Part shown: in pieces, positions 22,524 through 24,332 of the stretch
Layout: each line of letters starts with the position of its first letter
How positions within the stretch are numbered: the stretch's first letter is position 1
NCBI GenBank assembly: GCA_023645945.1
Contig: JALAIB010000042.1
Coordinates: 1-42,175 of the forward strand
DNA length: 42,175 nt
Direction: 5' to 3'
Origin: Diploschistes diacapsis
Taxonomy: Eukaryota
Translations under genes and position numbers: made by a program
The notes under the pieces: model-generated
Told to the model about the DNA's origin: nothing
The model's database searches: none
The model's input: only the letters and a program-made list of their open reading frames with translations

Positions 22524-24332
22524 TTATGGTGTAAGACGAGATGCATCACGTGGGAACAGAACGGTTTCGCGAATGTCAGCCAATCCCAAAAACCCTTGAA
22601 CAAGACGGTTGAGGCCCACTGTATAACACAAGGTTAGACTTGCTCGGTGAATAGAGTTGAGACTGCTCGAAGGGGGGGGGGGAGGTTGGGCATCCTGCTG
22701 GGCTCAACGCGGTGAAATGGCAGGACGGAGAAAGTAATAGGAAAGCAACCTACATCCGAAACCACCCCACGGAGGCATACCGATCTCATGGGCTGCAACG
22801 TATGGGCGCCATCCAGGCGAGTCTGGATCAATGGGATATGCACGTGTGGCGAAGGCTGAGCGTAGCTCCTTGTAGGAGTGGAGTAATTGGCATCCGGTAA
22901 CGATCTCCTGTCCGCGTAGAATGACATCAAAAGAATGAGTTGTCAAGTCGCCCTCTTTCGATGGGTAAATGTTACAAGCGCGCAGGTGCCTCGGAAAGTG
23001 GGTGATGATAAACACATCGGTAGGGGGCCCTAGAAATGACTGATCGCTTGTTAGGAAGCGTCCCAGTGCTGCTTCTTCCTCTCTTCTAATCCGGATTTAG
23101 CATGGTAATACGGTAATAGATAGAGTTGGTGTGAGAAAGATGAATCAGCACTTACGTAAGGTCGTCCTGGTCATGTGATTGCCAACCTAGTGAATCCCGA
23201 AGAATTGCCTTCGCTTCGCTGAATTTGATCCTTGTTAACTTGCCATTGTCATTGAGCCCCAATTTAAATGTGCCAGCTAAAGGATACAGCCGTCGCGCAG
23301 CTTGCGTAAGTGCGCTGTACTTTTCGCGCTCTTGAAGGGACCGTATAAGAAACACCAAGAGACTGTCAGCGAGCTCTACAATCTCAGTCCAATCGTGTTG
23401 GAGGGCAAACACAAGTTCAAGCATCGTGAACTTGAAAAAAGTCAGTACTCGCGACAAAATTGAAGAGCTGCTATAATAATCGCAAAACGCGCGATTGGAG
23501 AAGGTGAACTTTAAACGAGACAAAGGAGTCAGACCTCAGTCAAATGCCTGCCATCAACATTTCCTTCTCGGCGAAACACAGTGTGGATGTCGTATATACG
23601 CTCCAGATCCGCAGCTAATGCCATACCTAAGTGTACCTCGCCCGTTGGTGCTAACCATGCTGTTTTGTCGAAGTACGGCACAGAAAAGTGATCATCTTCC
23701 TCCCCCGGGAATTCATAATTGATGAAAGTCGGTGTTGGAGTGTGGTAAAATCCAAGGGCCGCCAAGTACTCTACGGCAAGCTCATGGACACCTGAGAAGA
23801 GCTTAAAAATGGCAGCAGTTGCGACAACCCGAGCGTCCAAGAGCCTGTTGTTAAGCCGCTCGTCTAATAACGCGGCGCGCGACTCCAACGGCGGCAAGTC
23901 CTCACCAGGAGCTCCATGCCATTTGAGCCTTTCCGGGAGGTCAGCCTTTGCTTCCGATAGCGCAACCAGCTTAGAGACGCAAAATATCATCATCTCCGAA
24001 ACGGTCTCGTCCTTTGCACGCTGTTTTTCAGGTACAGTCGAGCCCGATACGCGCACGAGAGACTCAGCAGTGAGACGCCGAGCTGTTTTAAGGCTGACGA
24101 CGTCCGCTGAGCCTGGTTCAAGAAAGGCTTTTATGAATTTCCCGTTACGTCGCAGCAGAATTGTGATCGCCGCATCTGATTCCGCTGCAGGGACGCCATG
24201 AACGCGGGCATCAAACACAGCGTGGTCTCCCTGGGCATGGTCCTTGTCCAAATGGCCGCCGTTCAGGAGAAGGCCGTTTGCAGGCGAATTTGGAAAATGA
24301 GTTCCATTCACATTAGAATGCTGAAAGACCAT
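22524..24332 (-). CDS. Aspartyl/asparaginyl-tRNA synthetase-like (class IIb) protein with divergent amino-acid pocket, 4 exons (24332-23535, 23430-23156, 23085-22754, 22618-22524), ~499 aa
   Basis: Has an OB-fold-like N-terminal part (LTAESLVRVSG), RLNNRLLDAR, motif 1 region GFYHTPTP, motif 2 VFRREGNVDGRHLTE/FTMLEL, SFDVILRGQEIVTG, motif 3 GMPPWGGFG/LGLNRLVQGFLGLADIRETVLFPRD, and a stop at 22526-22524. Three GT-AG introns give 1500 nt in frame. Confidence 0.9.

Follow-up and report, generated by a model that had tools for sequence, protein, structure and literature searches.

A fungal AspRS paralogue with a replaced amino-acid pocket in a putative secondary-metabolite gene cluster of Diploschistes diacapsis

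The window analysed here, a stretch of 42,175 nucleotides of contig JALAIB010000042.1 (assembly GCA_023645945.1) from Diploschistes diacapsis, carries on its minus strand a gene (24332..22524) for a protein related to the aminoacyl-tRNA synthetases (aaRS). The protein is a full-length paralogue of eukaryote-type aspartyl-tRNA synthetase (AspRS), and its gene stands beside genes for a 2-oxoglutarate (2OG)/Fe(II) oxygenase, a heme-oxygenase-like diiron protein (HDO) and a transporter of the major facilitator superfamily (MFS). A first-pass annotation of the sequence had proposed that this paralogue retains the ATP-binding motifs of AspRS and has lost the residues that recognize aspartate. Comparison with orthologues and with canonical enzymes confirmed this core observation, and the loss extends throughout a fungal protein family. 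Most of the known aaRS paralogues with a new function are bacterial, among them AsnA, EpmA, VlmL, the MetRS-like hydrazine synthetases and the amino acid:carrier-protein ligases. The present case differs in being derived from a full-length eukaryotic AspRS and in belonging to a sizeable clade of Pezizomycotina. Full-text searches of the openly accessible literature turned up no paper on a biosynthetic paralogue of AspRS from fungi. The DNA of the window occurs in a sequencing run of a lichen metagenome, and among the listed runs that contain it there is no RNA run.

Gene structure and orthologues of the AspRS-like protein

The gene comprises four minus-strand exons that run from an ATG at 24332 to a TAA stop at 22526-22524. 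Exon 1 (23535..24332) encodes a short N-terminus, an OB-fold (oligonucleotide/oligosaccharide-binding) domain, the hinge and the catalytic domain through motif 2 (FRRE..RHLTE), and exon 2 (23156..23430) encodes FTMLELV and a helical insertion. Exon 3 (22754..23085) contributes R-A-C-N-I in place of RPFYT, the segment SFDVILRGQEIVTGCQLLH and GMPPWGGFG, and exon 4 (22524..22618) ends the protein with motif 3 GLNR, FPRD and the TAA stop. The three introns (23431-23534, 104 nt; 23086-23155, 70 nt; 22619-22753, 135 nt) are all of the GT..AG type, and open reading frames (ORFs) of the window are interrupted by short GT..AG introns in the eukaryotic manner. The spliced coding sequence of 1500 nt specifies 499 amino acids plus the stop codon, and its exon structure is identical in four metagenomic orthologues (L001-L004). 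Every motif that the first-pass annotation had quoted is present in the spliced product, namely EFPGEEDD at residue 207, LAPTGEVHLG at 227, FRRE at 253, RHLTEF at 262, FTMLELV at 267, GQEI at 416, EIVTGCQL at 418 and GLNR at 470.

The class IIb catalytic domain PF00152 (tRNA-synt_2) is recognised in exon 1 (E 2e-10), exon 3 (E 2.4e-9) and exon 4 (E 0.011), and the scores for exon 1 (40.7 bits) and exon 3 (37.2 bits) pass the gathering cut-off of 25. The Pfam anticodon-binding domain PF01336 gave no match in the AspRS-like protein even at E<=0.1. Precomputed Pfam assignments agree, with PF00152 alone in 26 of 26 orthologues and the combination of PF01336 and PF00152 in nearly all of 120 canonical dps1-type rows. 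The OB fold itself is present, as residues 31-120 form a confident barrel (pLDDT, the predicted local distance difference test, of 75-89) in an AlphaFold model of the orthologue P0001.

These orthologues, found by searching with exon 1 among longer proteins, are 26 fungal proteins of 467-517 amino acids that are 49-67% identical. All those with a named source belong to Pezizomycotina (Periconia, Coniella, Colletotrichum, Trichoderma, Podospora, Pestalotiopsis, Coniochaeta, Dothidotthia and others), and they are labelled either 'aspartate--tRNA ligase' or 'hypothetical'; the former, a pipeline name, is probably wrong for these proteins. Their alignment (A1) has a mean column identity of 56%, and the unusual motifs are conserved throughout. 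A profile of the 26 proteins aligns end to end, N-terminal domain included, with yeast AspRS (1eov/1asz, E 9e-80) and human DARS (4j15, E 3e-74), and yeast AspRS is also the top Foldseek match of the P0001 model (E 1e-26).

Amino-acid pocket, selection and phylogeny

For the comparison of individual positions we used yeast AspRS numbering, obtained by adding 70 to the chain index of 1eov; this conversion reproduces the positions that we take to be F127, Q138, R325, D342, R485 and R531 of the yeast enzyme. The functional roles of these residues as aspartate binders, ATP or metal ligands and anticodon readers are likewise presumed from the structural literature. An exhaustive HMMER search supplied the canonical reference of 22 representative eukaryotic AspRS, among which P0167 was confirmed as dps1-type through named close relatives (basidiomycete enzymes). 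Residues Q300, S301, P302, Q303, K306, D342, E344, S481 and R485 are present in 21 of these 22 representatives. The exception, P0283, is a canonical-type AspRS that also lacks R325 and H334 of motif 2 as well as D471, and it is likely to be a pseudo-enzyme judging by these losses.

In the profile alignment, the four segment replacements proposed earlier were all recovered, as yeast LAQSPQFNKQ corresponds to LAPTGEVHLG in the family, FTGLDME to FTMLELV, EILSGAQR to EIVTGC[Q/R]L and PSEGGSS to EFPGEEDD. At the level of single positions, the window protein and its 26 orthologues have T at S301, E at Q303, L at K306, E at D342 and L at R485 without exception (27/27), and V at E344 in 26 of 27. The residues assigned to ATP and metal binding are retained, as had been claimed, with R325, E327, R333, H334, E337, F338, D471 and E478 found in 27/27 and R531 in 23/27, the four exceptions being gene models with aberrant C-termini. 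This family-wide residue replacement is far beyond chance. Counting a column as canonical when 19 or more of 21 canonical AspRS agree gives 92 columns, of which 47 are retained by 20 or more of 22 members of the family.

The losses reach beyond the pocket. In the OB domain, all 21 canonical enzymes share F127, Q138 and E188, whereas these positions vary in the window family as well as in every other paralogue. Further columns lost from the catalytic domain include RPFYT, which reads R-[P/A]-C-N-[V/I] in the family; in addition, W replaces the H of PPH and N replaces the E of GLER. The N-terminal extension has a median length of 38 amino acids and a net charge of -1.5, versus 101 amino acids and +3 in canonical enzymes, so that the basic extension is gone, and the catalytic domain carries more negative charge (net -13 versus -7). 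Relative to yeast Dps1 (1ASZ/1EOV) and human DARS1 (4J15), the family therefore shares the OB, hinge and class II catalytic domains, motifs 1-3 and the ATP/metal residues, but differs in Q303E, K306L, D342E, E344V and R485L, the acid-rich flipping loop, the lost F127/Q138/E188, the altered RPFYT, the change of GLER to GxNR, the missing basic N-terminal extension and its position in a separate clade.

The gene is under strong purifying selection. Nei-Gojobori dN/dS (the ratio of nonsynonymous to synonymous substitution rates) of the window gene was 0.12, 0.11 and 0.11 against L001, L002 and L003, and 0.20 between L002 and L003, a range well removed from the value near 1 of relaxed selection. 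Synonymous divergence (dS) is saturated against L004, exceeds 1 between the window and L002 or L003, and is 0.135 between L002 and L003.

A maximum-likelihood tree of 48 rows, rooted at the midpoint, splits 27 paralogues from 21 canonical enzymes with an SH-aLRT of 100 for each; seven rows were excluded from it for aberrant C-termini (P0003, P0006, P0014, P0016, P0024), truncation (P0163) or degeneracy (P0283). The first-branching paralogue, P0155, keeps QS.Q..K, D342 and SQR, but GxNR is already in place and F127, Q138 and E188 are gone; such a combination of residues suggests that it may be an intermediate form that activates aspartate independently of tRNA. In the remaining paralogues E303 and E342 occur throughout, while position 306 varies (L, L, Q, H), as does 485 (A, H, S, F, and L in the window family); P0163, outside the tree, has I at 306 and C at 485. 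The variation at these two former aspartate-binding positions falls between sub-families and is the pattern that would be expected of a diversifying specificity pocket. With the midpoint root, a duplication probably came first, anticodon reading was lost next, and the side-chain pocket was remodelled and diversified last. The search for representatives returned 18 rows above the first canonical one, of which 17 are presumably of the paralogue type (8 were inspected). The remaining one, P0156 (914 amino acids), is a tandem duplication of canonical AspRS in which the second copy is partly degenerate. Rhypophila has two AspRS-like copies, one on the contig of its HDO and one elsewhere (P0013, P0015, P0020), as would result if the ligase gene had been duplicated once more.

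The remodelled pocket was compared with those of Escherichia coli LysU and EpmA, taken from an annotated K-12 record. At position 303 the window family has E, as do LysU (E240) and EpmA; at 306 it has L, as does LysU (L243), with M in EpmA; at 340, a G in yeast, all three have M; and at 342 all three have E (E278 in LysU). The corresponding motifs are EFTMLELV in the family, EFTMMELY in LysU and EFTMLEWY in EpmA. Since the tree places the family with AspRS, this likeness to LysRS and EpmA is convergent, a case in nature of an aaRS pocket remodelled so that its wall resembles that of LysRS. In place of LysU Y280 and E428 (numbering checked), which we take to be the residues that bind the epsilon-ammonium group, V and L are present in the family, and its flipping loop (EFPGEEDD) is rich in acidic residues. 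A non-acidic substrate fits the Leu/Leu floor of the pocket and its LysRS/EpmA-like E/L/E wall, and the pocket would suit a neutral, probably longer side chain, that is, neither aspartate nor lysine itself.

The first-pass annotation had compared the protein with EpmA/PoxA, the ligase that attaches beta-lysine to EF-P, and with AsnA, and the comparison holds for their likeness as class II paralogues but not for their architecture, as the family keeps an N-terminal OB domain that both lack. EpmA and LysU share with the family the class IIb fold and four positions of the pocket wall (E, L/M, E, M; EFTMLE), but the NCBIfam models of EpmA score only 52-53 bits against cut-offs of 264-287. AsnA and the archaeal AsnRS-like asparagine synthetase resemble it as AspRS-derived adenylating enzymes with an acceptor other than tRNA, but AsnA still binds aspartate, and with the NCBIfam models for asparagine synthetase A the scores are 33-50 bits, below the cut-offs of 309-389.

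Gene cluster and HDO neighbour

The AspRS-like gene is separated by a divergent intergenic region (24333..24721), presumably a bidirectional promoter, from the plus-strand 2OG-Fe(II) oxygenase gene (24722..25702), which has the domains DIOX_N and 2OG-FeII_Oxy, at least two exons, an approximate start and an HxD...H triad in its second ORF. The HDO gene (PF14518) follows on the minus strand (26188..28341) as a single exon for 717 amino acids with an N-terminal helix or transmembrane segment. On the plus strand beyond it lies a multi-exon MFS transporter gene (30254..32145, limits approximate) that is orthologous and syntenic in L002. The order and orientation of the MFS, HDO, 2OG and AspRS-like genes are shared by the window, L002 (21.7 kb of a 525-kb contig) and L003, and the head-to-head arrangement of the AspRS-like and 2OG genes is kept in both. 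For ten of the 26 orthologue rows, the HDO of the same species lies on a contig of exactly equal length. Locus tags are near-adjacent in Pestalotiopsis fici (10845/10847, two apart) and in Aphanocladium album (06034/06031, three apart), and in Podospora they are consecutive in the numbering scheme across two species (QC764_503120 and PODANS_5_3110, the latter being the HDO gene). Among the intergenic regions of the cluster in the window, L002 and L003, of which the last two are not independent, a search for promoter words gave three 7-mers in 6 of 8 regions and no shared 8-mer or 9-mer, which we take as no evidence. No ORF of the size of a polyketide synthase (PKS), nonribosomal peptide synthetase (NRPS) or terpene synthase is present in the window.

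The HDO family is much wider than the AspRS-like family. In Sclerotinia sclerotiorum, the available part of one study (PMC13608281) describes a 2OG gene (SsOxy1, SS1G_07964) next to a PF14518 HDO gene (SsOxy2, SS1G_07963), whose knock-outs affect sclerotia, stress tolerance and pathogenicity and to which that text assigns no product. This neighbouring pair is homologous to that of the window, the SS1G_07963 protein being 46% identical to the window HDO, but it is flanked by a transporter and a flavoprotein, and the same portion of the study reports no aaRS-like gene. The more widespread occurrence of the HDO and 2OG pair, as in the Sclerotinia case, weakens the earlier suggestion that the ligase is the hidden core enzyme of the cluster, and the ligase may instead be an added step on an HDO and 2OG module.

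Searches of the HDO sequence against the PDB and the ESM Atlas gave nothing past the family name, and a literature search for PF14518 gave the RohS structure paper as its sole relevant result. In a structural model of the window HDO (pLDDT 84.6), the HDO domain (residues ~48-349) was superposed on solved structures. The closest were three N-oxygenases, RohS (Z 20.1, 2.9 Å over 251 residues), the HDO domain of SznF (Z 19.8, 2.9 Å over 249 residues) and HrmI (Z 18.8, 3.7 Å over 258 residues), followed by FlcD (Z 15.3, 3.8 Å over 251 residues) and by CADD, BesC, PolF and UndA (Z 11-13, 3.5-4.4 Å over 191-209 residues). The sequence identity of the window HDO to these structures is only 12-15%, and the shared fold does not prove the type of reaction. 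Candidate diiron ligands E195, H205, E269, H295, D299 and H305 (E-x9-H / E / H-x3-D-x5-H) are invariant in 29 of 29 homologues, a pattern close to the ligand set E215, H225, E281, H311, D315 and H318 given for SznF in the accessible text of PMC11705231. RohS converts 2-aminoimidazole to a nitro compound according to the available part of PMC13133933, and one HrmI structure entry has, by its title, N6-hydroxy-lysine bound. By this modelled similarity an N-oxygenase role of the fungal HDO is plausible. The C-terminal half of the protein (residues ~350-717, window 26188-27290) is a conserved, all-helical region of ~370 amino acids with W420, G439, M441-G443 and W456 among its invariant residues, and a search with the whole protein model gave no structural match to it above Z 3.7.

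Proposed function and alternative explanations

The combination of a retained ATP site, lost aspartate binders and a conserved gene neighbourhood leads us to regard it as fairly probable, judging from sequence features, that the gene is a neofunctionalised duplicate of cytosolic AspRS whose product serves as a dedicated adenylate-forming ligase for a substrate other than aspartate in a four-gene secondary-metabolite cluster. Such a protein would still bind ATP and Mg and form an acyl-adenylate. The amino acid that it activates would be neutral and probably of longer chain, perhaps a product of lysine or arginine type that the oxygenases have oxidised, and the acyl group would pass to a small-molecule acceptor rather than to tRNA-Asp. 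Its partners would be the N-oxygenase-type HDO, the divergently transcribed 2OG/Fe(II) oxygenase and the MFS exporter. The earlier description of the protein as an adenylating, biosynthetic ligase is partly supported in silico by the retained ATP site, the lost aspartate binders, the cluster and the selection on the gene, while the activity, the substrate and the acceptor are what we infer from them.

Several observations weigh against this proposal. The OB domain is retained, confidently folded and under purifying selection, which leaves room for a macromolecular ligand, possibly tRNA. The AlphaFold model of P0001 has a mean pLDDT of 68 and falls below 50 at active-site residues 194-264, and because the model is weak at these strands the pocket was read from alignments only. 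L002 and L003 represent one lineage (dS 0.135) and so count as a single observation of synteny. Two Rhypophila rows (P0013 and P0015) lie on another contig than the listed HDO, and for 14 of the 26 rows the HDO of the same species was not among the best 120 of 760 HDO matches, so that co-location is documented for a minority.

Foremost among the alternatives is a tRNA-charging enzyme with altered amino-acid or tRNA specificity, or both, that would attach a non-canonical amino acid produced by the oxygenases to a tRNA, for use by a tRNA-dependent transferase or even in translation. The full-length architecture with its conserved OB domain, the retention of motif 2, motif 3 and the C-terminal FPRD, and the use of seryl-tRNA by VlmL/VlmA in bacterial valanimycin biosynthesis (PMC11705231, available part) all speak for this explanation. 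It nevertheless has to accommodate the loss of F127, Q138 and E188 in all paralogues and the absence of the basic N-terminal extension; moreover, there is no tRNA gene in the window, L002 or L003 and no GNAT, Fem or cyclodipeptide synthase (CDPS)-like transferase among the four conserved genes, and we consider this main rival unlikely. The conserved cluster, the lost anticodon-domain residues and the purifying selection (dN/dS 0.11-0.20) together argue against a copy for translation or for resistance, and with the loss of the aspartate binders they lend in silico support to the first-pass annotation, which had set both roles aside. Duplicated aaRS genes in biosynthetic clusters are a classic resistance device, and the basal paralogue P0155 keeps the aspartate-binding set, as an AspRS that shields its producer from an AspRS-inhibiting product would. 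A resistance copy must, however, bind aspartate and tRNA-Asp, and with K306 and R485 replaced by Leu in 27/27 and the anticodon-domain residues lost, self-resistance is the least probable of the explanations, with a very slim chance of being correct.

The altered pocket and the lost tRNA readers would also suit a non-catalytic ligand sensor or regulatory pseudo-enzyme in the manner of HisZ or of the plant AspRS that senses beta-aminobutyric acid, and the accessible part of PMC10441740 indicates that AspRS can serve as a small-molecule receptor in plants. A pure binder has no need of the ATP and metal residues, but those examined are invariant in 27/27, and the degenerate P0283 has lost them; we give the sensor a small chance. 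Slightly smaller again is the chance of a primary-metabolic role unrelated to the neighbouring genes, with coincidental clustering. The adjacent argininosuccinate synthase (ASS) gene is an ordinary gene of primary metabolism and two Rhypophila copies lie off the HDO contig, as such a role would allow, but gene order is shared with the single lineage of L002 and L003 despite dS >1, tags are near-adjacent in two named genera, and the named family members are limited to certain genera of Pezizomycotina, unlike a housekeeping gene.

A more specific and speculative version, which we consider unlikely though worth stating, is that the four genes form a fungal, independently evolved counterpart of bacterial aaRS-assisted N-N or N-O chemistry. 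The HDO would N-hydroxylate a basic amino acid, and the AspRS-derived enzyme would adenylate an amino acid and O-acylate the hydroxylamine where A76 of the tRNA formerly bound. The 2OG enzyme, a member of the cupin superfamily, would then rearrange or oxidise the ester to a hydrazine, N-nitroso or related product for export by the MFS pump. To our knowledge, the biosynthesis of fungal hydrazines such as the N-amino-proline derivatives of Trichoderma is not known. These derivatives appear in the reference list of PMC13755311. The available parts of PMC11705231 and PMC12376268 describe bacterial pathways of N-N bond formation, with cupin/MetRS-like hydrazine synthetases or with VlmL/VlmA of valanimycin, in which the gene for an aaRS-derived enzyme adjoins those for an N-oxygenating enzyme and a cupin-superfamily protein. 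The window ligase likewise adjoins an N-oxygenase-type HDO and a 2OG oxygenase, a likeness of logic only, as the bacterial pathways rely on either a true SerRS or a MetRS-like domain of class I whereas the window enzyme is a fungal derivative of class II AspRS. In the hydrazine synthetases, furthermore, a Zn/Fe cupin is fused to the ligase, but in the window the 2OG partner is separate and no cupin is fused. If this version were true, the wider paralogue clade would represent unrecognised fungal 'core' ligases for natural products made from amino acids independently of the ribosome and of NRPS.

The window sub-family at least is locked into the HDO/2OG cluster, and clusters of this kind would escape genome mining that is keyed on core genes of the PKS, NRPS or terpene type. 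Should the paralogues prove to be a ligase family of diversified specificity, they would provide a new handle on amino-acid-derived metabolites of fungi. The homologous HDO/2OG pair affects pathogenicity in Sclerotinia, as the available text of PMC13608281 reports.

Other features of the window lie on either side of the four genes. The ASS gene (20822..22188, minus strand) begins ~335 bp downstream of the AspRS-like stop codon, has three exons and a canonical P-loop, and matches both ASS Pfam domains over their full length (E 2e-75 and 6e-37). Membership in the cluster through a link to arginine was considered and rejected as the principal interpretation, the gene being fully canonical and missing from the corresponding place in L002 and L003; there, housekeeping genes for an EF-Tu-like GTPase and a Vps27-like protein adjoin the cluster instead. 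It is probably a housekeeping neighbour, and it could otherwise be a cluster-linked duplicate rather than the housekeeping ARG1. A stretch of ~14 kb (6000-20000) with 42-45% GC and no ORF above ~120 amino acids separates the ASS gene from a fragment of a Zn2Cys6 gene (2977-3495), and repeat-induced point mutation (RIP) indices over this 6-20 kb stretch gave no clear RIP signature. Past the MFS gene lie a UBX-domain gene (33673-35085) and a DUF3632 gene (38411-39382), both of ordinary appearance.

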